Source: Armatimonadota bacterium (GTDB lineage Bacteria; Armatimonadota; UBA5829; DTLH01). From it: a DNA stretch of 64,000 bases. Below are positions 49,666-64,000 of the stretch, piece by piece. Every line of letters starts with the position of its first letter. Position 1 is the first letter of the stretch. The notes below the pieces were generated by a model that did no database searches, was not told the DNA's origin, and was given only the letters and a program-made list of their open reading frames with translations. The stretch is taken from assembly GCA_039680575.1 (NCBI GenBank), contig JBDKSP010000088.1, positions 63 through 64,062 on the forward strand. Reading direction: 5' to 3'. A program made the position numbers and the translations under genes.

Positions 49666-49876
49666 CTGACCAAGAAAAGTTCGCGGGTGGACGAAATTGC
49701 GGGCTAATGATGGGATCATCTGTGAGTCCGGTCAATTACGTGGTCGCAGGGATAATCCACTGTCCGGCTGGTACAATTTGTAACAAATCGAACTTGCGCC
49801 ATCGGTATAAAGGCAGGTTGCCTGACCGGCACTTTGCTAACGGTGGTCGTAAAGATTCTTGGGGAGGAAGTTTTCG

Positions 49877-51652
49877 TTGAATCTAAGGAAGCACGAGAGG
49901 CTTTATAGGCTGGTGTCCTGTGTCACGGTGTTTGGATTCATACTGCCGTTGATGCTGACAGTATTTCCGCAGGCTGCTGTAGCACAGTCACAGGCTCAGA
50001 CGCCGATGCAAGTAGGCGTGGTCGAATTCCGTAATGATTCTGGCGTGCAGGGAAGTATGCTTGCCAGGTTTGCTACGGACGCGGTGGTAATCGAGCTCAG
50101 CAAGTCGGACCGCTTTGATGTTATCACAAGAGCGCAGATCGATGCGCAGATGAAAGACCTTGGAATTGCCAACCCGCTTAACAGCGTCGAGCGTAACAGA
50201 TTGGGAGAGGCTCTCTACGCCGATGCTATGATCGAAGGTTCAATCAAGGCAGTCGAACTCCGGGGCAGCGGGTCTACACGCCGTGCTGCCGTCACCATTG
50301 TCATTCGAATGGTCGATCAGTCATCCGGCGAGGTCATTAACGGCGCTATCCAGACAGGTACCAGTAATGTGCGTGTCGGCAGCAGTCCGGACGATGACAA
50401 GCTGATTTCGGAAGCCATTAACAACGCTGCATATCAGGCTGTCAAAACGATGATCGATTACATCATCCCCGAGGCGACAGTCCAGAATACGATCAGAACC
50501 AATGAGATTCTGTTGAATAAGGGTGCCAGAGACGGCATCAGGTTAGGTATGCGGATGATCGTTACGCGGGACCGCGAGATCATTGGGGAAGTCGAGATCA
50601 GGAAGGTAGACCCGGACAACGCGACGGGTTTCATAGTAAAGCAGACACGGGGAATCAGCCCGGAAGACAAGGCTAGAGCAGTATTCGATATGCCGGAGAT
50701 CGCCAGAGTACAGGCGGATTCCGGTACGAAATCCGGTCCTCCTACCGTTTCATCAAAGAAGTCGAGTTCTTTGCCTAAGATCGGTAGAGTGCTCCTGGGT
50801 GTACTTGTTGCCTGGGGTGTATCGAAAATCTTCGATTCTGATGGCACAGAAAGCGTCGGTGGTGTGACCGCTGAAGCAGGATTGTCCGGTTATAACCTGC
50901 CCGTTGAAAGCGGCAGCCCCGGTGTTAGGGTAAAATGGGATGCCAGTAAACTCGGACGCGGCAAGAATGTCATAGAGTATCATATCTGGAGGAACGACGT
51001 AAGCGGTCCAGTGCTTACAGCCCGCGCTTCGGATGGTGTAGCTTTTGATGATGCAAACACCAGGTCTACAGCATATACCACCGCCAACAGCGAGACGAAT
51101 GCTAAGACTACCGGCACGACTACAGTTCCTGCTATGACACTCAGCACGCCTCTTAAATACTGGGTTTCCGCGCTTTATATGGTCCAGTCTTCGGATAGCA
51201 CTCTATATTATGAAACGGACAAAGTTGCTACCGGCCAGGCGACACCTATGTCTCAGATAGCTGTAGCAAATCTCACGCTGCCGGCTGCTGGCAGTCAGCA
51301 GAACTTGCAGAAAGTAACATTTGAGTGGCTTTCCAGAAGAGGCGCGGATGTCTACATAGTTGAAGTTTCAAGCGACCCGACATTCCAGAACCCTGAATAT
51401 GTAAGCAGTCCTGTATACTACTCTCCGGCCGCAGATGGTCAGACGGTAAGGCTGGTGGTATCAGCGTCACTCTATAACTTATTCTCAAGCACAACAAGTG
51501 ATCAACCGATCTGGTGGCGAGTCGGGATGCGGGCAAGTGGAGACTCACCTGGACCAATTCCGGCAAGCGGAAGGTCCAGTATGCGATATTTATATAGTGA
51601 AATAAACTCATTCTATCCGGCTGATACACCTCCGGGCACGCCGGATCAGTAA
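49877..51652 (+). CDS. secreted/lipoprotein-like protein: CsgG/LpoB/FlgO-like N-terminal alpha/beta domain, internal hydrophobic segment, C-terminal Fn3-like repeats
   Basis: TTG start with GGGGAGG 9 nt upstream and a signal peptide (NLRKHERLYR-LVSCVTVFGFILPLMLTVF-PQAAVA). The N-domain pattern VGVVEFRNDSG...RFDVITRAQIDAQMKDL resembles the CsgG-like lipoprotein family. First gene of a four-gene co-directional cluster. Domain call is tentative. Confidence 0.4.
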   Translation: MNLRKHERLYRLVSCVTVFGFILPLMLTVFPQAAVAQSQAQTPMQVGVVEFRNDSGVQGSMLARFATDAVVIELSKSDRFDVITRAQIDAQMKDLGIANPLNSVERNRLGEALYADAMIEGSIKAVELRGSGSTRRAAVTIVIRMVDQSSGEVINGAIQTGTSNVRVGSSPDDDKLISEAINNAAYQAVKTMIDYIIPEATVQNTIRTNEILLNKGARDGIRLGMRMIVTRDREIIGEVEIRKVDPDNATGFIVKQTRGISPEDKARAVFDMPEIARVQADSGTKSGPPTVSSKKSSSLPKIGRVLLGVLVAWGVSKIFDSDGTESVGGVTAEAGLSGYNLPVESGSPGVRVKWDASKLGRGKNVIEYHIWRNDVSGPVLTARASDGVAFDDANTRSTAYTTANSETNAKTTGTTTVPAMTLSTPLKYWVSALYMVQSSDSTLYYETDKVATGQATPMSQIAVANLTLPAAGSQQNLQKVTFEWLSRRGADVYIVEVSSDPTFQNPEYVSSPVYYSPAADGQTVRLVVSASLYNLFSSTTSDQPIWWRVGMRASGDSPGPIPASGRSSMRYLYSEINSFYPADTPPGTPDQ

Positions 51653-51755
51653 GAATTGCTTTCAGCATCGGCCGCACCGTTCGCTATATTGAGATAAAGA
51701 GCGGGCGGCCGACCCGCTACAAGCGGGTCGGGACGACAGGGAGGTACAGGAGAAG

Positions 51756-54752
51756 TTGAACCATAGATATTTACAACTGATGCGATGCAAATGGGCTGTT
51801 ATCTTATTCGCGGTGTTCGTGCTATCCGCGAATGCTGTCGCAGCAGATACTCCGGCAACATCGGCTTATGTACAAAACCAGTTATTAGTCCGGCTCGCGC
51901 CTGGCCTGACTGAAGCCGAGCGAGATGCCGCATTTGATAAGATTGGCGCCAAATTGATCCGCCCTCTGGCGCTTGCAAACACATATCTCGTCGAGCTTGT
52001 GCCTACCCGTGGCGAAACTGTTCAATCTGCAATGACCAGGGCAAGTTCAGTAACAGACATCACTACCGTCGGTCCGAACTATCGAAGATATCCTACTGCT
52101 TCGGTCCCGAATGATACTTTGTGGTCGAAGCTCTGGGGTATGAAGATGATAAACGCGGACGATGCCTGGGATATTACGAAGGGCAGCTCCAGCGTAATTG
52201 TTGCTGTGCTCGATACCGACTTCAGCCTCGATCATCCCGATCTGAAAGACAGATACCTGCCAGGCACGGATACGGCGATGGGCGATGGTGATCCTTCTCC
52301 ATGGGCTCAGAAGGATAAGTTGAGTCATGGGACCCATGTCACCGGTATTATAGCAGCCCAGGGAAACAACAGCGAAGGTGTCGTTGGTGTCTGCTGGGAT
52401 GGAGTAAAGATTCTCCCCATAAAAGTGTTTGCTGACGATGGGTCAGGTGACTCGGCAGCCGTAATAGATGGACTGTATTATGCGAAAGCACAGGGCGCCC
52501 AGGTTATAAATATGAGCCTGGGTGGGGTTTATTCCGATTCTTTCGAGCATGACGCACTAAAAGACCTGTACGCTGCTGGTATTATAATCGTTGCATCCGC
52601 GGGTAATGAGGCTTCGACAGTCAGCTATCCCGCTGCGTATGCTGAAGTAATAGCGGTTTCCGCGTTGGGCGATGATGAACGTCCGGCCGATTACACAAAC
52701 TACGGTTCTGAAATAGATATTGCCGCTCCTGGCGGTGAAGATGTCGAGGATGGCGCAGGTTCTATCTGGAGCACCTGCTGGTCCAAAGACAAAGGGAATT
52801 ATTACTCAGGCTTGCAAGGGACATCGATGGCAGCGCCGCATGTCGCTGGCGCAGCAGCTCTTATGATCTCGTCAGGTATATCACCGAGCCAGGTTACAGG
52901 TATGCTTTACCGCGCAGCAAGATCGCCTAAAGTCGGTGTTCTCGATCCTTTGAAATATGGAAATGGAATTCTCGATCTGTATCAGGCGATGCATGCAAAT
53001 GCTGAAATCAATATAGTAACACCGGAAGATGCAGAAGTACTGGATACAACAACTCCTCAGTTCAAGATATCGACTTATCTTGTCCAGAAGAGCAGTATCA
53101 AGATTTATCTGGACTTTACGGATGCAAATAAAGACGGAACGCCAGATAATCTTGATGAAAGTATCGTGCTGAACGGCACGACAATGGATTCGGATTCAAA
53201 TGCCTCCTGGGATGCCGAAACCAGCACTCTTACTTTGAATTGGCCGTCAGTCGGACAATCTCCACTGTCATCAGGCACTCATACAGTATGCGTTATGGGC
53301 GACCCTGAATCAGGCGCCAATTCCGGGACAGTAAAGGACTGGAAAGTATTTTTTGTAAGACCGAAAGTGATTTCGGCAGGGCGGCACATGTTATCGATTC
53401 CTTATCCGCTGTCGTCGGATGTGACACCTTCTGATTTATTCGGAGGGGATGATTTCTGGTTGGCCAGATACATTCCATCCCAAGATTCTTATGCCACGAT
53501 AAACTATCCGTCGGGAAATGATGAAGATGCTGCCTGGCCGTCGAATCCAGGCGTACATCCGCACGGTGATACTACGGATACTCCTCCTGCGGGTCTAGGA
53601 TACTTCGTCGAGGTACTAACGGATACACCAATTTCAGTAAGTGGAACTGCAGATAAGACCAGAGCTTATGATATTACCTTGACTCGAGGGTCGACCGGAT
53701 GGAATATGATAGGAAACCCGTTCCCATTCCAGGTTGCTTGGGATAGTGTGAAGCTCACATATAGAGGTAAAACGCTGACGTTGAGAGACGCAGTTACAGC
53801 CGGTTGGATTCGTCAGGCTCTGTATAGATATACAACATCAGGATATACATTCGAGAATGATCTTATGAAGGCGGTTCTGGTACCTTGGGAGGGAAACTGG
53901 GTAAGGATACTTCCTGATTATCCGGATAGAAATACCGATACCATGGTCCTAATGGTCCCCCCGGTCGAGTCGACTTCTATTGTAGATGCATCAAAAAGCC
54001 GCGAGGCTACAACCAGCGATGGTTGGTCTGTAAATCTTGTAGCAAAAGTAGGAGATGCTGTCGATTCTCAAAATCTGATAGGTATAGACAGCAGAGCGTC
54101 CGAAGGTTACGACAAGCTTGATGTAGAAGAACCGCCGGTTTTTAACGACTATGTTCAGTTGTCTTTCACGCATAGTGATTGGGTAGACAAAACAGGCCGT
54201 TACGCAAGCGACTTCAGGTCGAGTATAGGGACAGGCAAGACTTGGGAATTTAGCGTCAAAACTGATACATTGAACAAGGATGTTTCGATATCCTGGCCTG
54301 GAATAGCTTCAGTACCGAAGAATTGCCGGCTTGTCCTGGAAGATCTCGACAGCGGTAACAAGGTATATATGCGGACTAGAAACAACTATATATACAACTC
54401 AGGAACAACCGAAAGCTCAAGAAGATTCAAGTTATATGCAGAACCGTCGGACAGCGGTTCTCTGATGATTACAAATGTAGCTATCTCTCAAACGAGAGGA
54501 TCAAGCGTAAGTATTAATTATACGATCTCGCGTGATGCGAGTGTTGAAGTCCGTGTGCGAGATAACAGGAATAAACTGATTCGCAAATTGGGCGGAAATA
54601 CAACTCGCGCCGCAGGGATTAATTCGATGAGCTGGGACTGTGCCCTCAACAACGGAGACCAGGCTCCCAGCGGTCTATATATGGCGGAGATCGTTGCTAC
54701 CGGACCGGATGGTGAGGTGGCAAAGACTATCAGGCCGATTCTGGTAAGGTGA
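51756..54752 (+). CDS. secreted subtilisin-like serine protease (peptidase S8) with I9 propeptide and ~550-aa C-terminal extension ending in a FlgD-Ig-like/T9SS-CTD-like domain
   Basis: Signal peptide and I9-type propeptide. Catalytic triad blocks VAVLDTDFSLDHPDL (Asp), HGTHVTGIIAA (His), GTSMAAPHVAGAAAL (Ser). The C-terminal 350 aa are paralogous to the next gene. Confidence 0.85.
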   Translation: MNHRYLQLMRCKWAVILFAVFVLSANAVAADTPATSAYVQNQLLVRLAPGLTEAERDAAFDKIGAKLIRPLALANTYLVELVPTRGETVQSAMTRASSVTDITTVGPNYRRYPTASVPNDTLWSKLWGMKMINADDAWDITKGSSSVIVAVLDTDFSLDHPDLKDRYLPGTDTAMGDGDPSPWAQKDKLSHGTHVTGIIAAQGNNSEGVVGVCWDGVKILPIKVFADDGSGDSAAVIDGLYYAKAQGAQVINMSLGGVYSDSFEHDALKDLYAAGIIIVASAGNEASTVSYPAAYAEVIAVSALGDDERPADYTNYGSEIDIAAPGGEDVEDGAGSIWSTCWSKDKGNYYSGLQGTSMAAPHVAGAAALMISSGISPSQVTGMLYRAARSPKVGVLDPLKYGNGILDLYQAMHANAEINIVTPEDAEVLDTTTPQFKISTYLVQKSSIKIYLDFTDANKDGTPDNLDESIVLNGTTMDSDSNASWDAETSTLTLNWPSVGQSPLSSGTHTVCVMGDPESGANSGTVKDWKVFFVRPKVISAGRHMLSIPYPLSSDVTPSDLFGGDDFWLARYIPSQDSYATINYPSGNDEDAAWPSNPGVHPHGDTTDTPPAGLGYFVEVLTDTPISVSGTADKTRAYDITLTRGSTGWNMIGNPFPFQVAWDSVKLTYRGKTLTLRDAVTAGWIRQALYRYTTSGYTFENDLMKAVLVPWEGNWVRILPDYPDRNTDTMVLMVPPVESTSIVDASKSREATTSDGWSVNLVAKVGDAVDSQNLIGIDSRASEGYDKLDVEEPPVFNDYVQLSFTHSDWVDKTGRYASDFRSSIGTGKTWEFSVKTDTLNKDVSISWPGIASVPKNCRLVLEDLDSGNKVYMRTRNNYIYNSGTTESSRRFKLYAEPSDSGSLMITNVAISQTRGSSVSINYTISRDASVEVRVRDNRNKLIRKLGGNTTRAAGINSMSWDCALNNGDQAPSGLYMAEIVATGPDGEVAKTIRPILVR

Positions 54753-54775
54753 TTGTGATAGGAGATAGAGTATTT

Positions 54776-57460
54776 ATGCTACGAACAGCAAAAATATTTG
54801 CCATTGTATTGTCGGCAGTCGCTTTGATCGTGCTGTCTGCCCCCGTATTCGCGCAGGATTATACTGCCGGTACCAGTAACGAATATCTGTTGGTAATGAT
54901 GGGTCAGCAGGAAGATGTGTATGTATACGAGCCAGAAGAAAAGCCTGTCGAAAAGCCAAGGTCAGGCCGGTGGGTGATATATACTGTCAAAGGCGATCCG
55001 GAAATATCGGATGATGATAATATTCCGTTGGTAAGGACAGCGGCTGACGGTGGACCGGGATGGAGACATGGGTTCACAACCATAAGAGTAGATAATACCA
55101 GTGAAATATTCGGAGATACTTCTCGCGGAGCTTGGGTGCTTTATCCATATATAAGTGATAAAGAAACGGGCAACTATGTGGGACTTACAGGGCAATATGT
55201 GTGCGGCCTGTGGTATGTTAACGCATCGGCTATAACTGCAAGATTCCGAATGGCGCTGGTAAGGGACCAGGTGAGGCTTGAAGTAGTACTGACCAATTAT
55301 GACACCAAATCACATTATGTTGGTCTGAGACACTGCTGCGATGTAACAACCGATGGAAATATAGATTCCATAACGCATCCGTATGTTCCAGGCAGTGGAG
55401 TTGTAATGGCTGAGACCGATTATTTAGGGTCAGCAATACCGGACTACTTTGAAATGTATGATAGTATCAGCAGTCCCAAGGTAGCAGTGAGAAATACTCT
55501 AAACGAGCAGGATGCAACTGCACCTGACAGAGCAGCATTCGGTTCCTGGCAAAATATGCAGGGAAGCGATTGGGACTTTACCGCTATACCGGATAGAGCT
55601 GTAGGGGATTACGGCTGGGCGCTCTGGTGGGCGCCTGCGCTCCTCAATCCACGTGAATCCAGGACAATTATCACTTATTTTGGAATGGCAGCAGCTACCA
55701 GTTCTTGGACATCAGATAGCGGCAGCATTGGGTCAGTGCCAAAGCAGGATCCTTTCTGCGTGGCAGTGCAGGGACCAAAATCACTCAGTATAGATTATGA
55801 TTCAAGCCAGTCATCCGATACGATGCTGCAGACTAATCCGTTCAAGATAAAAGCATATATATACAACCTGTATACTGGTGATACGACACTGAAAGATGTT
55901 CAAGTTCACTTAACCTTACCGGACGGATTAGAGTTGGTAGACGGGACCGCTACTCAAGAGATAACCAGCATACCGCCTGAAAGCGAAGGACTACCAGTAA
56001 GCTGGAATGTAAAGGCAACTGGTAAAGTGACAGGCACGCTCGATTATATCGTAACAGTTAGCGGCTCGCCGGGGTTACAAAAGCAATTGACACGTAGTAT
56101 AGTAGTCCCTTCTACAGGGACTACTCAGATACAGACAGGATGGCAGATGATCTCGACGCCATTCAAATTCGAGGATTCAAGGATAGAAGAAGCTCTGAAT
56201 CTGGCGGATGATACTTATAGCGCATCATCATGGAATCCTCAGACACAAAGTTATGATACTGTTACGAATATAGCCCCTGGTAAGGGGTACTGGTTAAAAT
56301 CAACTATAGATAGGCCGACTACAAGAGTATCGACTAGCGCGAAACCTTTGTCGGGAGCTGAATCATATTCAATAGACCTTTATACTGGCTGGAATCAGTT
56401 TGGAAACCCGTACATTTATCCTATTCCTTGGGGAAGAGTAAGGGTTTTGGGGACAGCACAGGACGGACTGCTTACGATAGACGAGGCAGTTTCAAAGAAC
56501 CTCATCAGAAAGACTATTTACTGGTGGGATACTGCCGCTGGTGAATATAGTATGTCATCAGATGAGATGGAAAATCTGGTTCCCTGGCAGGGGTATTGGA
56601 TAAAAGCTAAGCAGCCATGCCAGTTGATTATTCCTGCAGTCAGTGAGATAGGTGCAACCTTAAGTGGAGATACTACGAGAAGTAGAGGAAAAGCATCTTC
56701 TGCTTCCAGTACGACGAAATGTGATGGATGGAACCTAAAACTTGTGGCGAGAGCGGGAGAAGTTGAAGATTCCACAAATTATATAGGTATCGATAGCCGT
56801 GCATCGGACACATACGATTCAGCGGACATAGAAGAGCCGCCATCACCCGGTGATTATGTCAGTATAAGTTTTCCACATACGGATTGGGGAGCTAACAGCG
56901 GTAATTATCTTTCGGACATCAGAAGATCCACAGGTGGGACACAGACCTGGGAGTTCAATGTAACATGTGATAAGAAAAATACGGATGTTGTATTGACATG
57001 GCCGGCTTTATCTGGTGTATCGAAAGATTATACTCTGAAAATGACTGATGTAGACGGCAGCTTGACCAGATATATGCGGACTACAAGCTCATATAAATAT
57101 AACTCTGGCGAAGGTGGAGTAAGAAGGTTTAAGCTTGTTGCCGAACCAAGAGGTAATAACAGCTTAATTATAAGCGGACTTGGAATAAATACTTCTCGAG
57201 CGAACGGCAGCGCAACGATATCTTATAATCTTTCCGCGGATGCGTCTACTGATGTCAGGATCAAATCGACTTCGGGCAGGATGGTCCGTAGCCTGGCCAA
57301 AGGTAGAGGCGTTACAAGAGGAATTAATAATCTTACCTGGAACTATCGGGATGAAACCGGAGAGGCGGTTCCTGCTGGCAGTTATATGCTGGAAGTAGTG
57401 GCAACTACACAGGAGGGAGAGGTCGTTAAGACGATACGGCCATTCCTCGTGGCAAGGTAG
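54776..57460 (+). CDS. large secreted protein of unknown function sharing the ~350-aa C-terminal module (including the FlgD-Ig-like end) with the S8 protease
   Basis: ATG at 54776 with GGAGA Shine-Dalgarno and a signal peptide (MLRTAKIFAIVLSAVALIVLSAPVFA). Residues from GWNQFGNPYIYPIPW to the end align block by block with the protease C-terminus. Confidence 0.6.
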   Translation: MLRTAKIFAIVLSAVALIVLSAPVFAQDYTAGTSNEYLLVMMGQQEDVYVYEPEEKPVEKPRSGRWVIYTVKGDPEISDDDNIPLVRTAADGGPGWRHGFTTIRVDNTSEIFGDTSRGAWVLYPYISDKETGNYVGLTGQYVCGLWYVNASAITARFRMALVRDQVRLEVVLTNYDTKSHYVGLRHCCDVTTDGNIDSITHPYVPGSGVVMAETDYLGSAIPDYFEMYDSISSPKVAVRNTLNEQDATAPDRAAFGSWQNMQGSDWDFTAIPDRAVGDYGWALWWAPALLNPRESRTIITYFGMAAATSSWTSDSGSIGSVPKQDPFCVAVQGPKSLSIDYDSSQSSDTMLQTNPFKIKAYIYNLYTGDTTLKDVQVHLTLPDGLELVDGTATQEITSIPPESEGLPVSWNVKATGKVTGTLDYIVTVSGSPGLQKQLTRSIVVPSTGTTQIQTGWQMISTPFKFEDSRIEEALNLADDTYSASSWNPQTQSYDTVTNIAPGKGYWLKSTIDRPTTRVSTSAKPLSGAESYSIDLYTGWNQFGNPYIYPIPWGRVRVLGTAQDGLLTIDEAVSKNLIRKTIYWWDTAAGEYSMSSDEMENLVPWQGYWIKAKQPCQLIIPAVSEIGATLSGDTTRSRGKASSASSTTKCDGWNLKLVARAGEVEDSTNYIGIDSRASDTYDSADIEEPPSPGDYVSISFPHTDWGANSGNYLSDIRRSTGGTQTWEFNVTCDKKNTDVVLTWPALSGVSKDYTLKMTDVDGSLTRYMRTTSSYKYNSGEGGVRRFKLVAEPRGNNSLIISGLGINTSRANGSATISYNLSADASTDVRIKSTSGRMVRSLAKGRGVTRGINNLTWNYRDETGEAVPAGSYMLEVVATTQEGEVVKTIRPFLVAR

Positions 57461-57526
57461 TTCAGTTTGTTTGAAATGAGATATCGCAGGTTAATTGATA
57501 GGACAGGCTGGAAGGAAGATTTGAAT

Positions 57527-60500
57527 ATGATAGGGGTATGCAAGCGACTAGCTCTAGTTCTGGTATTTATTTTCGGAATAATGAGCCCGGTATATGCGAA
57601 TTTGAGTGGAGGAACAGTCGGGCCAGCTCATCCGACTGTCAACTCAATTTCGAATATTAGGTCAGTATGGGAAGTCGAAGACCAGAAAATACCAGATACT
57701 GAGGTATGGAGAACATACGAATTAGGTAGAAACCGGCTTACTACGGCATCAGCATGGCAAGTAAATCCTAGTTACTATAGTCTGCAGCCGGACCCGGATG
57801 CGACAATAACGGAGACTTATAATGCAGTCGATGTCGTAGAATCGGTCTATGTAGAGGTGGATGGAAGTGGCAATATTGTACTTCCTGAGAATGCTGTCGG
57901 TATAAAAGGCGTCTGGATCGACCGATGGCAAAGGAAGAGTGTGTGGCCTGGCGGCGCATTTACTGGAAACACGATAACAAGCGCCCAAGTAACACTTCCT
58001 GCAGGTATTGCACATGTATTTGTATCCTATTATAAAGCGGGAACAAATCTGATACATGTCGAGAATGCGCCTCTTCCAAGCGAATATACTGTATATAAAT
58101 ATCCAGTAACTGCTGGCTTGAAAAAGATTGTTATAAATCCGGAGATATTAAGGTTGGATCCGGATACCGCCGGATTAAGAAATGGCGGAGATGAATGGAA
58201 TAACCTTCTAGGCGTATACGATAACGAGTCTTTGAAGGGTGTAGACTATGCCGCAAGCAGGAATATCGACACAGCCTCATCAACGATATCGTTTAGCAGA
58301 ACCGTAAGCAGCAATGTCAGGAACCTTTACGTAAAGGTATCTACATATGCTATTGATTATGTCAGTATAAACGGTAATCAAGTGCTTCCTACCAGCTATG
58401 ACCCGGATACAGGAGAGATAGTGCTTCCGGAAGAAGTAACAACCGGGCAGGCGGTGGAAGTATCATATCGCCCTCTTGGAAGAAATGTTGTGACGGTAGC
58501 CCAGGTTCCAATAACAGCGGTTACCTCAGTGAGTAGTGAAAACGGTAATTGCACAGTCCAGGGATTTGATGCAGCTACTGGGAAGATAACACTACAGGAT
58601 CCTCTAGAACAGGGAACAAGAACTCTATATTGCGTATATACAGCCACTGATATGCAAAATGTCACAGGCGAAGGTTCATGGAGTTGGATGGAAGGTGGCA
58701 AACCATTTCCTATTGTACGCGAAAGCGACGATCAGGATCAGCGGTATGCTTCTCTGCAGCCGGATCCCGCAACAGGTGGCGTAAGGGTTAAAGGCGGTCA
58801 TGTGAAGTATGGGCCGTATAGACTAGATGAATGGGTGTTCCATGGTGTAGATAGAGTTGATGATGAAGATGCTGTTGGCGTAACCATGCTGGATGGCGAT
58901 GGTAAGACAATAACAACAACAGGAATCGTCGACGCGGCTGATGATAATTGGGGGTGGACTGGTATATTCCTGTTGCCTGCTCATGAACCAGTCCTTATTA
59001 AAAGTGTAATTATATCAAGTATCATAGATGGCGAATTCGTAACGGATAACTATGCGGAGTTCGCCCAGATAATGGATATCAAAACTGCTGCAGGTGACAC
59101 GGTTAGGGGTATTTACATAGATACGGACACAGCGGATGTAGGAGAAAGAGCGTTTGCTGCCAGAATATCGTACTATGTAAGTGGGAAAAACATGGTGTTG
59201 GTGCCAGGACCTTTGCCTATGCCCGCGACAGTTAGAGAAATAGACCTCGATAATCTTTTCCAGCCAAGGTCTAACTTATTGAGGATCAACCCGAATTTGA
59301 TTCAGTTTGATCCTGACACTGAAAATTGGAGAGCAAACGCCCTAAGTACCAATTTATTGGACGGATATAATGTCCTGGGTGTATTCGATAACGCAAACCT
59401 GACAGGATGGAACTATTGGACTCCCGGATCCGGAAAAATAACAATAGATGCAACCGGCGCTGCAGTTTTGCAGTTGAATTGTGTTCCTACGAGTTCAGTT
59501 ACTAGATTATTCGTTAAAGTATCGAGCTATGCCGTTGATGGTGTTTTTACTCAGTCAACCGGCGGAGCTAATTATTATCCAGGCAGATTAGCGGATGCAT
59601 TAGCAACAGATCCAGGCAATGATGTAATGAACGATGGCCATGATTATGCCTGGTACGATCCTAATATCACATCAGAGAAGCTGGAATCTACTGGATACGC
59701 GGAAACCAGAATTGGCGAAATTCACCTTGCAAAGTCATTGCCTGCAAGTGGTCAAGCTGTGTACGTGTCTTGGCGGAAATTGAGCAGGAAGAGTGTATCG
59801 CCTGCGCGACCTCGTGTTATGGCTGTTCCAGTATTCCAATATCTGGGAGATCCGGATATGCCGATGGACGAGGATGAGAATCCTCCGATAGATGCGATAG
59901 GATATCTTTCCGCAACTCCACCGGTAAATTCGGTCAGATTAAACTCATCAGGAAGCCTGCCGGAAGGCACCCAGAATGTATACTACATGGAATACCATGC
60001 GGGAATGTGTGTTGGCGGCACAGCTACATCGGCAGTATACGTCTATGGGTTATTAAGATTTACATTCCAGCCGATGTATATCGTACCAGCTGAGAGTTCT
60101 GCAACGGAGTTTGTATACAGACTTGCTGTAAGCGCTGGGTTGAATATGAGTAAGGCCATACAGCAGCCTTCATATGATTTGAATGATCGGACCAACAATC
60201 TTCTTCTGATGGACCCAAGAGCTCATCCGGTGGACTATGCACCGCTTATAAAAACTGAGCAGGGTAGGATAGACCCAATAACTCGTGAATTTGAGTTTTA
60301 TGCAGCTTCACATCCGGATAAATTGGGTTCGACTCCAACAATATCTCAAAAAGGGCCAATCAGCACGACTGTGCATGCATCAACCGTAGGGCGTGGTACG
60401 GATGGTACTGTTGATTATGGTGGAACCTATCGATATGGGTATGGGCTTGATTGGCTTACAAACTACAATACAGATCCGGATTTCCCAGTAAGCTTTGCTG

Positions 60501-63500
60501 GCGGCGACCCGTTAACACCGGTTATGCCATCTCCGATAGTCTCTGATTCGATAATCAGCGATGATGGAGCATCGAGCACAACATATACGTTTAGAGTTCG
60601 CTATTGGAACAAGGATAACATTCCTCCAAGAGCATGGCTAAAACCGTGGGCGGATGAATCTGGCGCTTCCGAATCAACGGGTGTTGTATTGTATCTTGAC
60701 CTGATGAATGTTCTCGATATTCCAGCAGAGAGCAGTCAAAGCAGCTATAGGCCGCACTTTATGACAAAGGAGTACACAGCCGATAACGACTATACAGACG
60801 GATGCGATTATATATATACAATCGCGCCGTCATCATCGAATGAGTACATATCCCTGATAACTGGAACATATCATTATTTCTTCGGATGTTCGGACGATTC
60901 GCTTAAATTAGATGATATGGATGATAACGTTGTTACAGATGATGACATTTTGCTTTTCGATGGTCAGCTGTCTGGCACTAGCTGGGCTAATTATGATCAA
61001 ACTAGCAGGACACTTACCCGTTCCAGTACTGGCCTAGATCCTTTCGAGCCAAGAAGCCTTAATGACAATGACGGCAGGCCTTGGATGCCGAGAGATATGG
61101 GTAGACGTTATAGCGCCTTCGGTGATGATAGTCCAGGCAGACCAATTAAGGATGAACCGGGTCCGCAGGATTGCCAGATATATGTCGACAGGCAGGATAG
61201 AGCACCGGGTCAATTCGAGTTCCTCTATCCTCAGCAGTATGAGTGGAAGTGTATAGAACATCCTGATATATCGATTACATTGAGTGGGTATGGCAGTAAA
61301 GCTGCCGATGGTTTCCCGAGGTTCTTTGGGACAATAAGTCCATTCTATAGAGCAGTAAACCCGAGCGAAGGTACACCGTGGGTATATGCCGGCTTCGGTT
61401 ATATGGCTTCACGCATGGAATCTTGTGGCGCCACGACTTCGACTATGCTTACGTTCAAGGTCAAGTGTTATCAGAGGGATAATACTGCTCCGCTCTGGGT
61501 GAAGGTCTTCATAAACAATGAGAGTATGAAGATTCTCGATTACAATACAGGGCAGTCGATGAAACCGGAGAACGGCGGTTATACAGGCTATACAATGATG
61601 CCTGCTGCCGTCCAAACATCGGAGTATCAGTCACAGACAGCGCCATACGATTATTCGCTTGGTGTTGATTACGAGTTCAAGACCCAGCTTCCCGCCGGGC
61701 CGCATACCTATTTCTTTATGGCAAACGATGGTATAGCGACTGCGCTTTATCCTGCAAGGCCTGAAGGAGATAAATGGATTGCAGGTGTACAGCAGAATGA
61801 TGATGCCGGATTCGATAACAATTACTGTCCGGGACCATATATCAACAATGCATGCCAATTGTTGACCCCGAGCGTAACTCCGGCGACTGGTATCCAGGGA
61901 CAGCAGTATGTATACAGGGTGCTATATAAAGATGCCGATGGGCAGCGCCCGTATAAGACAAAGATATATATCGATACAGGTACCACAAGTGGCGTAATAT
62001 CGGTAGATATGCTCAAAGAGGACCCATCCGCTTCTGATTATAAAAATGATGGCGTATGGTATGTGCTAAATACTGCAACGATGGAGGATCGTACACTTGC
62101 TAAGGGTGTAAGGCGCTATAGATTCGAGTTTACCGATGACTGGGGCAGGCCTGACGATCCTAACGACGCAATAGAAGGTCAGATGACAAACTATCCAGCG
62201 TCTGGCTCCTGGGTAGATGGTCCTACTATCGGTGAGAATGTACCTCCGACACTAAGGTATGGGAAGATAGAGAGCCCGGATGGTACGGCAAACGGAGCTA
62301 CGCTTTGGGGATTCGAAGTTGAATATAAAGACTTAAATAGCGATGCTCCCAAGTATGTAACTCTATACACAGGCAGATTACAAGATGATGGTACCACGAT
62401 AGAGTGGGACAACGGGACTCAAATGTCACAGGCCGACCCCGGTGACAGTATATACAGTGATGGTTGTGATTTCGTGTTGCAGAAGAGGCTGGAGCAGGCA
62501 TTAGATCCTACAGATGATGCGCCTACATATTATTATGCGTTTGAAGCGTCTGATGGTATAAGCCTGGCGACATGGGTAGGAGAAGATGATCCGACAATTG
62601 ATAAGATCTCTGAATCAGCGGGATGCCTTCTCAAGGAACCGCTTACAACAACGGATTATCTGACTTATTCCTGTAGTAAAACGCCTATTGTAGGGACGCT
62701 GCAGAACCAGCCGACAGATGCCGGTATTCTTATAGACCCGATTGTTTGGGCTTATATGAATGGCGATACGGCAAACCCGGTAATTTTGAGCCGGAAAGAC
62801 GAGTATGTATGTAAAGGCGTAAACCAGAATCTAACAGGAGCGAACACTGTATCTCGATATTACCCGGCAGATCCTCCGGGTTCGGATTTGATTCCGGTTG
62901 AGGCAATAGACCCGGCATATAAGCCGGACATTACTGAGGTTATTGGTGTATATGATAATTCCAGCTTAACAGGAACGAATTATTTCCTTGCGGATGATGG
63001 TACACCAGGAACATATTCAAGTACAAGTTTCATGATAACCTTGCAGAAGAGTCTCCCCTATGGTCAAAACTGGGTGTGGATCAAGTATAACCATAGCGGA
63101 AATCATTCTTATACGCTGGACCGGTGGAACGGTGAATTTACCTTCGATGAGGCAATGGATTCTACAGATGTGTTAGTAGTAGACTATTTCTTCGGAACAA
63201 AACACGAAATTCCGATAGGAATAAATATACCGCCGACATTGAGTAGTCCAAAGCTTACACCGATGGTAGGCGGATCCGGCACAGACTTCGTATATTCTAT
63301 AGAATATAAGGAGACTGAGGGGACGAATGGTCAAGCGCCATCGTTTGTTAGGGTCGTTATAGACGGTGTAGAGCACACGATGAGCACGACAGTGTCGGAT
63401 ACACCGTCCTATAGATCAAGCGTAGTATATAAATATACCGCGAAGCTTGAGAGCGGCGCGCATGAATATTACTTCACTACCAGTGATGGTGTGGGACTGG

Positions 63501-64000
63501 TAACATTACCGGAGGTGAATCAGACTACCGGAAAAATAGAGGCATACGTTGGACCATGGGTGAATAATTCACCAGCGCTCAGCGATGGATCAGCGACACC
63601 GAACCCGGATTCCGGAAGTATAAGTACGACGCAGAGTGTAGTGTATTCGGTAACTTACAGCGATCGCGACGGTGATTTGCCGATTACATTAGCTCCGTTC
63701 GCCAACGATCTGGGAGCGGCAGACGAAATAAAACTTATGAAGTTCCCGATGCCGCTGCTATACACGGACAACACAAATGAGACCTGGAATGTCGGAATCG
63801 TCGATGATATTATCGAAGACCCGGCTCAACCTGGTAAATACAGGTGTATTCGTGTTATGGGAAGTGACGGTCAATCAGCGAGTTATAAAGTAGACCAGTT
63901 TGCTGGAAAGCTGATACAGTTCATTGGCGGTGATCTGGACGGAAGAGTCTATCTGATTGCCAACAATACCAGCAACGTCCTCAAACTGATGACGGATGAC
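57527..64000 (+). CDS. giant repeat-rich secreted protein, 5'-partial view: more than 2,158 codons open to the window end
   Basis: Translated by hand codon by codon from the ATG at 57527 to position 64000 without a stop. GGAAGGAAG Shine-Dalgarno 9 nt upstream. N-terminus MIGVCKRLALVLVFIFGIMSPVYA is a signal peptide. Contains at least two repeated module families. Missing from the ORF track because no stop lies in the window. Confidence 0.8.
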   Translation, partial: MIGVCKRLALVLVFIFGIMSPVYANLSGGTVGPAHPTVNSISNIRSVWEVEDQKIPDTEVWRTYELGRNRLTTASAWQVNPSYYSLQPDPDATITETYNAVDVVESVYVEVDGSGNIVLPENAVGIKGVWIDRWQRKSVWPGGAFTGNTITSAQVTLPAGIAHVFVSYYKAGTNLIHVENAPLPSEYTVYKYPVTAGLKKIVINPEILRLDPDTAGLRNGGDEWNNLLGVYDNESLKGVDYAASRNIDTASSTISFSRTVSSNVRNLYVKVSTYAIDYVSINGNQVLPTSYDPDTGEIVLPEEVTTGQAVEVSYRPLGRNVVTVAQVPITAVTSVSSENGNCTVQGFDAATGKITLQDPLEQGTRTLYCVYTATDMQNVTGEGSWSWMEGGKPFPIVRESDDQDQRYASLQPDPATGGVRVKGGHVKYGPYRLDEWVFHGVDRVDDEDAVGVTMLDGDGKTITTTGIVDAADDNWGWTGIFLLPAHEPVLIKSVIISSIIDGEFVTDNYAEFAQIMDIKTAAGDTVRGIYIDTDTADVGERAFAARISYYVSGKNMVLVPGPLPMPATVREIDLDNLFQPRSNLLRINPNLIQFDPDTENWRANALSTNLLDGYNVLGVFDNANLTGWNYWTPGSGKITIDATGAAVLQLNCVPTSSVTRLFVKVSSYAVDGVFTQSTGGANYYPGRLADALATDPGNDVMNDGHDYAWYDPNITSEKLESTGYAETRIGEIHLAKSLPASGQAVYVSWRKLSRKSVSPARPRVMAVPVFQYLGDPDMPMDEDENPPIDAIGYLSATPPVNSVRLNSSGSLPEGTQNVYYMEYHAGMCVGGTATSAVYVYGLLRFTFQPMYIVPAESSATEFVYRLAVSAGLNMSKAIQQPSYDLNDRTNNLLLMDPRAHPVDYAPLIKTEQGRIDPITREFEFYAASHPDKLGSTPTISQKGPISTTVHASTVGRGTDGTVDYGGTYRYGYGLDWLTNYNTDPDFPVSFAGGDPLTPVMPSPIVSDSIISDDGASSTTYTFRVRYWNKDNIPPRAWLKPWADESGASESTGVVLYLDLMNVLDIPAESSQSSYRPHFMTKEYTADNDYTDGCDYIYTIAPSSSNEYISLITGTYHYFFGCSDDSLKLDDMDDNVVTDDDILLFDGQLSGTSWANYDQTSRTLTRSSTGLDPFEPRSLNDNDGRPWMPRDMGRRYSAFGDDSPGRPIKDEPGPQDCQIYVDRQDRAPGQFEFLYPQQYEWKCIEHPDISITLSGYGSKAADGFPRFFGTISPFYRAVNPSEGTPWVYAGFGYMASRMESCGATTSTMLTFKVKCYQRDNTAPLWVKVFINNESMKILDYNTGQSMKPENGGYTGYTMMPAAVQTSEYQSQTAPYDYSLGVDYEFKTQLPAGPHTYFFMANDGIATALYPARPEGDKWIAGVQQNDDAGFDNNYCPGPYINNACQLLTPSVTPATGIQGQQYVYRVLYKDADGQRPYKTKIYIDTGTTSGVISVDMLKEDPSASDYKNDGVWYVLNTATMEDRTLAKGVRRYRFEFTDDWGRPDDPNDAIEGQMTNYPASGSWVDGPTIGENVPPTLRYGKIESPDGTANGATLWGFEVEYKDLNSDAPKYVTLYTGRLQDDGTTIEWDNGTQMSQADPGDSIYSDGCDFVLQKRLEQALDPTDDAPTYYYAFEASDGISLATWVGEDDPTIDKISESAGCLLKEPLTTTDYLTYSCSKTPIVGTLQNQPTDAGILIDPIVWAYMNGDTANPVILSRKDEYVCKGVNQNLTGANTVSRYYPADPPGSDLIPVEAIDPAYKPDITEVIGVYDNSSLTGTNYFLADDGTPGTYSSTSFMITLQKSLPYGQNWVWIKYNHSGNHSYTLDRWNGEFTFDEAMDSTDVLVVDYFFGTKHEIPIGINIPPTLSSPKLTPMVGGSGTDFVYSIEYKETEGTNGQAPSFVRVVIDGVEHTMSTTVSDTPSYRSSVVYKYTAKLESGAHEYYFTTSDGVGLVTLPEVNQTTGKIEAYVGPWVNNSPALSDGSATPNPDSGSISTTQSVVYSVTYSDRDGDLPITLAPFANDLGAADEIKLMKFPMPLLYTDNTNETWNVGIVDDIIEDPAQPGKYRCIRVMGSDGQSASYKVDQFAGKLIQFIGGDLDGRVYLIANNTSNVLKLMTDD

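Follow-up and report, generated by a model that had tools for sequence, protein, structure and literature searches.

A giant secreted protein of an Armatimonadota bacterium combines two diverged repeat families, one of which matches a solved but unnamed beta-sandwich domain

The stretch of DNA analysed here (hereafter the window: 64,000 nt of contig JBDKSP010000088.1 from an Armatimonadota bacterium) ends within a giant gene, which is preceded on the same strand by genes encoding an rpsA-like S1 protein, CoaE, a 597-aa (amino acid) protein, a 998-aa S8 subtilase and a 903-aa protein. The reading frame of the giant gene is open from an upstream stop codon (57458-57460) to the last letter of the window, and since it is still open there, the window covers only residues 1-2,157 of a longer protein. 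The first ATG of the frame lies at 57527 (all residue numbers below are counted from it), with the purine-rich GGAAGGAAG just upstream, and the residues that follow this start are common to the window protein and to all of its homologues recovered by word-indexed search. A predicted signal peptide opens the protein and is 70% conserved among orthologues. The remainder is characterized by two families of repeated modules, here termed A and B, the copies of which are listed in Table 1 together with the regions that separate them.

Table 1. Features of the giant gene within the window. Residues are numbered from ATG 57527; ORF, open reading frame; HMM, hidden Markov model; i-E, independent E-value; AF2, AlphaFold2; pLDDT, predicted local distance difference test. 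Percentages given for hhalign, here and in the text, are probabilities.
Feature	Residues (aa)	Nucleotides	Strand	Remarks
Giant ORF		57527..64000	+	single open frame; encodes 2,157 aa from the N-terminus of a ~3,000-aa protein; 3' end beyond the window
Predicted Sec-type signal peptide, MIGVCKRLALVLVFIFGIMSPVYA		57527..57598	+	read directly from the letters: hydrophobic core, then VYA
A supermodule, copy 1	156-418	57992..58780	+	versus copy 2 by hhalign 99.1%, E 1e-18, 243 columns
A-core unit 1, NLLGVYDNESLKGVDY...LYVK	226-270	58202..58336	+	A-core HMM i-E 1.3e-15 (iterated)
Degenerate A-core unit	339-371	58541..58639	+	C-terminal two thirds of the unit; A-core HMM i-E 3.4e-12 (iterated), 5e-3 (first pass)
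Spacer between the two A supermodules	419-536	58781..59134	+	identity to four orthologues 0.27, lowest in the protein
A supermodule, copy 2	537-858	59135..60100	+	insertions relative to copy 1
A-core unit 2, NVLGVFDNANLTGWNY...LFVK	615-664	59369..59518	+	A-core HMM i-E 1.7e-18 (iterated), 1.1e-5 (first pass)
B1	1013-1127	60563..60907	+	B HMM i-E 8.9e-22; hhalign B1-B2 93.3%; long loop insertions in the Ig-like sandwich
B2	1303-1409	61433..61753	+	B HMM i-E 3.3e-24; hhalign B2-B5 95.5%
B3	1451-1541	61877..62149	+	B HMM i-E 1.5e-24; includes the conservation maximum of the protein
B4	1590-1683	62294..62575	+	B HMM i-E 1.9e-19; hhalign B4-B5 94.8%
A-core unit 3, EVIGVYDNSSLTGTNY...VWIKY	1804-1854	62936..63088	+	A-core HMM i-E 8.4e-25; isolated between B4 and B5
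B5	1911-1995	63257..63511	+	compact reference copy; AF2 pLDDT 88.7; best Foldseek match 6fhn
B6, N-terminal half only	2027-2054	63605..63688	+	matched by the B HMM over positions 2-27 only
First part of the ~120-aa insert within B6	2055-2157	63689..63997	+	identity to orthologues 0.68; continues past the window

The repeats predicted by the sequence-only reading of this DNA proved to be two genuine families within one giant ORF, as judged by hhalign, a shuffle control and a profile dot-plot of the translated protein; the dot-plot, which had been proposed as a check, gave significant internal similarity for A and B and for no other family. Whole-protein self-BLAST returned nothing beyond the identity high-scoring segment pair, and the comparisons were made instead with masked 100-aa segments, HMMs and hhalign. 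Neither A nor B was found elsewhere in a six-frame translation of the window.

Family B is made up of units of 85-115 aa, five of them complete in the window and a sixth represented by its N-terminal half, as compared to nine copies in full-length orthologues. Starting with the copy at aa 1911-1995, HMM iteration converged on all six window copies, the starts of which had been given correctly from the sequence alone (in the case of the sixth, for a half unit). As iterated E-values are inflated by the orthologues drawn into the model, we used independent tests of significance: an HMM built exclusively from orthologues of B5 gave 14.5 bits for B2 and 9.6 bits for B3, when none of 1,000 shuffled versions of the protein scored above 5.4 bits, and hhalign between separate orthologue profiles connected every B copy (B3-B5 91%; B5-B9 97.7%, the highest value). 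An AF2 model computed on an alignment of 34 B copies is a beta-sandwich of 7-8 strands (pLDDT 88.7), and a Y-x-D-x-D-G-x-x-P loop is present in most of the copies. In the full-length relative P0001 the other half of B6 is met ~120 aa further on (aa 2181-2218), followed by three more B copies that would lie beyond the window. B6 is thus laid out as a domain nested within a domain (P0001 aa 2034-2218), and this split form recurs in most members of the family. The most conserved 30-aa segment of the whole protein (aa 1447-1476, nt 61865-61954, identity 0.88) coincides with the start of B3 and contains TPSVTPATGIQGQQYVYRVLYKDADGQRPY, a stretch nearly invariant even in orthologues that are 47% identical overall; a dedicated site of interaction may be hinted at by this.

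Family A is shorter than the ~90 aa first proposed for it, as the core shared by all of its copies spans only ~50 aa (with a period of ~65 aa where it is found in tandem in relatives). The three copies lie where they had been placed, at A-core units 1-3 of Table 1; to these a fourth, degenerate one was added by an A-core HMM seeded with third-slot units and the unrelated fragment P0159, which recovered all four. With a seed lacking any copy from the same position, A-core unit 1 was recovered at i-E 6e-4. Copies 1 and 2 are contained in a supermodule of 250-320 aa that is duplicated in tandem, and resemble each other accordingly (segment BLAST E 1.9e-11 with masked 100-aa segments; phmmer 4.7e-12). 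Copy 3 is linked to copy 1 by hhalign (92.5%) through a common stretch of only ~50 residues (EVIGVYDNSSLTGTNY...ITLQKSLPYGQNWVWIKY), and the degenerate unit (positions 229-275 of the supermodule copy 1 profile) is linked to the copy-3 region at 89.3%. Of the motif by which the family had been defined, the second half (V[KR]VS.YA[IV]D) occurs in copies 1 and 2 only. An 'LQPDP'- or 'DPDT'-type linker had been said to precede each unit; the 'DPDT'-type motif stands before copies 1 and 2 (aa 210 and 594), and copy 3 has only a degenerate 'IDPAYKPD' before it.

The AF2 model of the A supermodule region (aa 100-460) is all-beta, with a mean pLDDT of 68.9 (mostly 70-90 over aa 100-380) and predicted disorder after aa ~380; the modelled part of the spacer (up to aa ~460) has pLDDT <50. 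Foldseek searches with the supermodule model against PDB and BFVD yielded nothing at E <= 1e-3, PDB sequences searched with the A profiles gave no meaningful match, and no relative of A turned up in Pfam or NCBIfam. Furthermore, no A unit was found outside the giant-protein family among the sequences examined. Family A has the appearance of a small beta unit confined to one lineage, variable in copy number and without detectable relatives.

As to the protein that carries these repeats, a word-indexed search yielded five homologues, four of them full length (3,015-3,146 aa; 76, 59, 47 and 47% identical to the window protein), two of which are named proteins from Armatimonadota metagenome-assembled genomes (MAGs). 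Searches of this kind under-report: they returned five homologues for the whole protein and one each for B and A, as compared to an exhaustive HMM search, by which long-range homologues from at least 30 more clusters (at 50% identity) were added. Wherever organism names are attached to members of the family they are exclusively Armatimonadota, and a genome scan with the whole protein matched only the MAG encoding P0001. The protein is acidic, rich in T, G, D and S, and contains 0.8% Cys. No Pfam family reached threshold in the window protein or in its relatives P0001, P0003, P0045 and P0035, and scans with NCBIfam, which like those with Pfam took in the window protein, full-length orthologues and expanded relatives, gave nothing at threshold either. 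Identity to the four orthologues averages 0.60 over the whole protein and is highest in the B domains (0.67-0.76). The full-length relatives P0001-P0004, together with P0159, end in a conserved domain of ~250 aa (motifs RWDP...Y, GWNQIG and DPWRGYWIR), which lies outside the window and is matched by nothing in Pfam. At the extreme C-termini of the relatives we observed a conserved [LW]D.PP.[AS]P motif (LDMPPAAP, LDMPPPSP, LDEPPAAP, LDQPPAAP and WDMPPPAP), which may serve as a sorting signal.

Among the sequences of the PDB, the B profile (hmmsearch) matched exactly one solved protein, the GH9 (glycoside hydrolase family 9) endo-xanthanase PspXan9 of Paenibacillus sp. 62047 (6FHJ/6FHN). Residues 829-903 of 6fhj_A align to profile positions 4-93 of 97 with E 7.6e-13 (52.6 bits, 33-34% identity) and share with B the motifs F.Y.A.Y.D....AP, V.IDG, M and Y.DG..Y.Y...L..G.H.FYF...D. 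The likeness extends to the fold: superposition of the B5 model on 6fhn by Foldseek gave a template modelling score (TM) of 0.88 and a root-mean-square deviation of 1.7 A (34% identity, 85 columns), and 6fhj and 6fhn were the only Foldseek matches of B5 at E <= 1e-3. On the strength of profile similarity over the whole domain and of the predicted fold, family B is homologous to this C-terminal beta-sandwich module. In the published layout of the xanthanase (Ig-like - GH9 - beta1 - beta2 - beta3 - CBM84, where CBM stands for carbohydrate-binding module; PMC11002231, secondary literature), the matched module is most likely beta3, and we treat residues 829-903 as a candidate for it. The next Foldseek matches of B5 were E-set domains of GH13 enzymes and of sulfite oxidase, with E of ~1e-2, probability ~1.0, TM 0.5-0.63 and 11-17% identity. 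E-set domains (for example the N-terminal domains of GH13 amylases, CBM48 and the dimerisation domain of sulfite oxidase) have the same general 7-8-strand sandwich as B; AMPK1_CBM, the Pfam family for CBM48, scores weakly, below its gathering thresholds, in B-rich proteins. The sequence-only reading would have been undone had the modules matched well-characterised domains; what was found is a solved yet functionally uncharacterised xanthanase module for B, and nothing for A.

The distribution of B is considerably broader than that of A. An exhaustive search of 1.84 billion cluster representatives (clusters at 50% identity) with the B HMM recovered 3,129 proteins at E <= 1e-3 (472 at E <= 1e-30), which span bacteria and archaea and include one protein of 6,784 aa with up to 50 copies; the few hits with names come from MAGs of Armatimonadota, Lokiarchaeota and Thermoplasmata. 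In eight B-rich hits Pfam recorded partner domains of the kind usual in extracellular proteins (PKD, PPC, LTD, beta-helix/NosD and FG-GAP). Over the B region of these eight proteins, none of the Pfam families for Ig-like domains, adhesin repeats or CBMs reached threshold, the scores obtained there being sub-threshold (AMPK1_CBM, Ig_PIFI, Big_13 and Big_7); Cytochrome_P460 gave a marginal summed match without any significant stretch. Taken together, the 3,129 hits, the match to 6FHJ and the sub-threshold Pfam scores indicate that family B is a widespread, structurally solved E-set Ig-like domain that is unnamed in the collections searched (Pfam-A and NCBIfam). Many giant proteins that are at present 'hypothetical' could be annotated with a model made from this domain.

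The relatives of the giant protein were sampled from the best 150 of the 3,129 B hits, which contained 30 further long-range homologues of the window protein (the closest 29-56% identical to it over roughly 900-2,300 residues), all 30 carrying A units. When the architectures of 36 proteins (some of them partial) were written as strings of A and B, a skeleton BBBB..Bb..BBB (4 + 2 + 3) was recognisable in most. Around this skeleton the number of A units varies by slot, with 0-10 in the N-terminal slot, 1-5 between B4 and B5 (two in P0002-P0004), 0-3 between B6 and B7 and 0-2 at the C-terminus. The window protein follows the order A A A - B B B B - A - B b, so that the two families are 'interleaved', as had been claimed, in respect of one A unit between B4 and B5, and otherwise form consecutive blocks. 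In the expanded relatives the A units form tandem arrays with a period of 63-66 aa and up to ~60% identity (61-63% at the highest), as compared to 26-33% among the A units of the window; paralogous copies of the two families are 22-33% identical. The gene of the window protein contains no repeat at the DNA level (only chance matches of 21-25 nt), on which ground recent slippage is rejected as the source of the repeats, in agreement with the proposal that simple slippage was not involved.

For B, a comparison of P0001 with five distant relatives revealed that each of its first six full-length B copies is nearest to the copy with the same ordinal in all five (the last two only partly so), with same-position identities of 30-51% against 24-32% for the best paralogue. 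It follows that the B set was fixed before the family diversified. Moreover, B2-B3-B4 and B5-B6 stand in tandem, with homologous linkers, such that B-linker-B units are homologous as blocks. The tandem homologous linkers and the same-position similarity point to an ancient intragenic duplication of B, after which the copies would have been frozen as a scaffold.

The gene order around the giant gene is kept at the loci of the orthologues with 76% and 47% identity and at that of a ~38%-identical relative of 4,306 aa. In relatives, the giant gene is followed by a gene of ~250-270 aa and then by a ~640-aa Big_1/Invasin_D3 gene. The resulting six-gene cluster of secreted proteins, located directly after rpsA(S1)-coaE, was observed in the window (49859-64000) and in the loci L001, L002, L003 1-22300 and L005 880-25783. 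Its first product (~595 aa across relatives) is CsgG/LpoB-like; in the window, the 597-aa protein has a weak and partial CsgG match (E 2.8e-7, profile positions 3-158 of 210) with which LpoB/GNA1162-like matches compete. A curli-type CsgG system was considered and rejected, the CsgG match being weak and partial and no CsgA/B/E/F-like genes having been found in the cluster. The S8 subtilase has a C-terminal FlgD_ig domain and the 903-aa protein the same tail; across relatives the product of this third gene has 650-900 aa, with the FlgD_ig tail in the closer ones. All four cluster proteins within the window carry predicted signal peptides. The two FlgD_ig-type tails (54480-54749 in the subtilase and 57200-57457 in the 903-aa protein) end almost identically, in KTIRPILVR and KTIRPFLVAR, which suggests a putative shared C-terminal sorting or anchoring domain; at the distant locus L005 the tail is not recorded in the precomputed Pfam hits.

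The results show that the giant gene encodes a secreted, all-beta modular protein with two ancient repeat families, B as a fixed Ig-like scaffold and A as a small unit of variable number. We consider it probable that both go back to ancient intragenic duplication, and that this protein is displayed as a fibre or adhesin. Under this reading, both repeat families would have been born by such duplications. The nine B copies, each conserved at its own position and arranged 4 + 2 + 3, would form a fixed scaffold or shaft, while the A units would occupy four slots around it and change in number by tandem duplication, expanding and contracting; the window protein would accordingly be a member with three to four old and diverged A units, two of them inside the tandemly duplicated supermodule. 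Once exported by the Sec route, the protein would form a fibre or a structure resembling an adhesin that either stays on the cell envelope or is released from it. In such a structure the B domains may give length and rigidity (possibly through Ca2+ held at the conserved Y-x-D-x-D-G-x-x-P loop), and contacts may be made by variable surfaces in the N-terminal and A-unit regions. Its partners would be the products of the five co-linear genes for secreted proteins (CsgG-like, S8 protease, FlgD_ig-tailed, ~260-aa and Big_1/invasin-like).

Several points weigh against this reading. The localisation and function of the giant protein are inferred, and no anchor or sorting motif was identified in it. 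The sole solved B-like module has no assigned function. Ca2+ binding at the B loop is possible at the level of a motif, and B1, B2 and B4 are without the full DxDG loop. Furthermore, the taxonomic restriction of A is drawn from a few named hits and from the best 150 B hits.

An alternative that we regard as unlikely, yet as the most serious competitor, is that the giant protein serves as a polysaccharide-capturing scaffold, with B (and perhaps A) acting as carbohydrate-binding modules; its main task would then be to tether glycans, or particles rich in them, to the cell, and not to act as a structural fibre. The one homologue of B with a solved structure does belong to a polysaccharide hydrolase, and its B-like module adjoins and overlaps the stretch that was cloned as CBM84 (PMC10049358): the forward primer of that PspCBM84 construct encodes DGRVYT, which corresponds to xanthanase residues 876-881, so that the matched stretch (829-903), which the last ~106 residues of the chain follow, covers the first ~28 residues of the construct. 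In a related Cohnella xanthanase, deletion of the N-terminal beta2-beta3 modules lowered activity 17-fold (PMC11002231). Moreover, the structural neighbours of B include starch-binding-type E-set domains of GH13 enzymes, with the sub-threshold AMPK1_CBM (CBM48) match in the same direction, and both A and B have conserved aromatic residues. On the other hand, xanthan binding has been assigned to CBM84 and not to the beta1-beta3 modules (PMC11002231, PMC10881899), the identification of residues 829-903 with a named module is itself a candidate assignment only, and E-set domains are often plain spacers. Neither the giant protein nor the conserved six-gene cluster contains a glycoside hydrolase or lyase domain; GH116 and GH2 genes were encountered near the giant gene in single loci only.

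Giant proteins composed of many Ig-like domains are known at the cell surface, and as giant repetitive surface proteins are common, the architecture described here is unsurprising and of an ordinary kind. What is new is its composition from one unnamed but solved domain (B) and one apparently lineage-restricted unit (A). In an uncultured lineage of Armatimonadota, the giant gene belongs to a cluster for secreted proteins that is syntenic and seems to be inherited vertically; its product is on that account a candidate for a core envelope structure, in a phylum with a poorly known cell surface. A much bolder proposition, to which we attach little probability, would see in the conserved six-gene locus a system for envelope assembly that is common to the Armatimonadota lineage and as yet undescribed. 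A core surface layer or fibre would be built chiefly from the giant protein, exported and processed by the products of the neighbouring genes, and with A as a new small fold, the expandable arrays of which would tune surface specificity.

In place of intragenic duplication, the interleaving of modules could have arisen by domain shuffling, as the sequence-only reading had suggested, through acquisition from (or exchange with) other genes. In favour of this, B is promiscuous, occurring in many architectures in bacteria and archaea; A units appear in a different domain context in P0159, where two of them are inserted in a homologue of the C-terminal domain of the giant family; and A-core unit 3 stands isolated between B4 and B5. 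The B copies of P0001, however, are nearest to their same-position counterparts (copies 1-6, in 5/5 distant relatives), the 4 + 2 + 3 arrangement can be made out in most of the 36 proteins (some of them partial), and the tandem B-linker-B units are homologous as blocks. The variable A counts, in turn, appear as tandem arrays of ~65-aa period inside fixed slots, and A is confined to the giant-protein family among the sequences examined. We hold the shuffling explanation to be very improbable for the protein as a whole: it fails for B (tandem and conserved position by position) and finds some support in A (0-10 units per slot, arrays, P0159). That compositional bias merely simulates the repeats, or that motifs recur by chance in a long T/G/D/S-rich protein, has a negligible probability and was ruled out, for despite low pairwise identities (22-33%) and some pairwise BLAST E-values of only 1e-3 to 1e-5, the copies exceed the shuffle maximum (14.5 and 9.6 against 5.4 bits), hhalign reaches 99.1% (A) and 97.7% (B), and B matches a PDB entry at E 7.6e-13, yields a confident sandwich model and has thousands of external matches.

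Returning to the secreted modular fibre or adhesin, its closest counterparts by architecture are the giant adhesins of other bacteria. BAP comprises several types of module and is polymorphic in their copy number, and LapA, SiiE and MpIBP are giant adhesins of a comparable type. Like the BAP-type adhesins, the giant protein is several thousand residues long, consists mostly of ~100-aa beta-sandwich modules (nine B copies per full-length protein), has more than one repeat type per chain and a varying copy number, is acidic, and has possible Ca2+ loops. Its B copies, however, are old and fixed position by position, and do not make up a homogenised array. The BAP of Acinetobacter baumannii is described as carrying arrays of 80-110-aa Ig-like modules that are highly polymorphic (PMC4647330). 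A further difference concerns export, as adhesins of the RTX/type I secretion system (T1SS) kind (LapA, SiiE and BAP type) have a C-terminal T1SS signal, whereas the giant protein has an N-terminal Sec signal peptide. No Pfam RTX/HemolysinCabind match was found in the full-length orthologues, and no T1SS genes (ABC, MFP or TolC) in the cluster at the loci examined; with the N-terminal signal peptide, these absences rule out membership of the RTX/T1SS adhesins. Pfam families such as Big_1-13, PKD, Cadherin, CARDB and FN3 did not reach threshold in the giant protein or in the relatives scanned. As compared to PspXan9, which shares the sequence motifs and the fold of B, the difference is one of deployment, since the module is a single accessory of an enzyme there and is present in nine copies here, as the backbone of a non-enzymatic protein.

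Two minor observations concern the DNA of the locus. The 903-aa ORF begins with a GTG that overlaps the stop codon of the subtilase gene by 4 nt (54749-54752), an arrangement consistent with possible translational coupling of the two. Furthermore, the G+C content is 0.45-0.47 over 54001-64000 (the 903-aa and giant genes), as compared to 0.50-0.56 in most of the rest of the window; since relatives share the synteny of the locus, this decrease appears more likely to result from amino-acid composition than from recent transfer.

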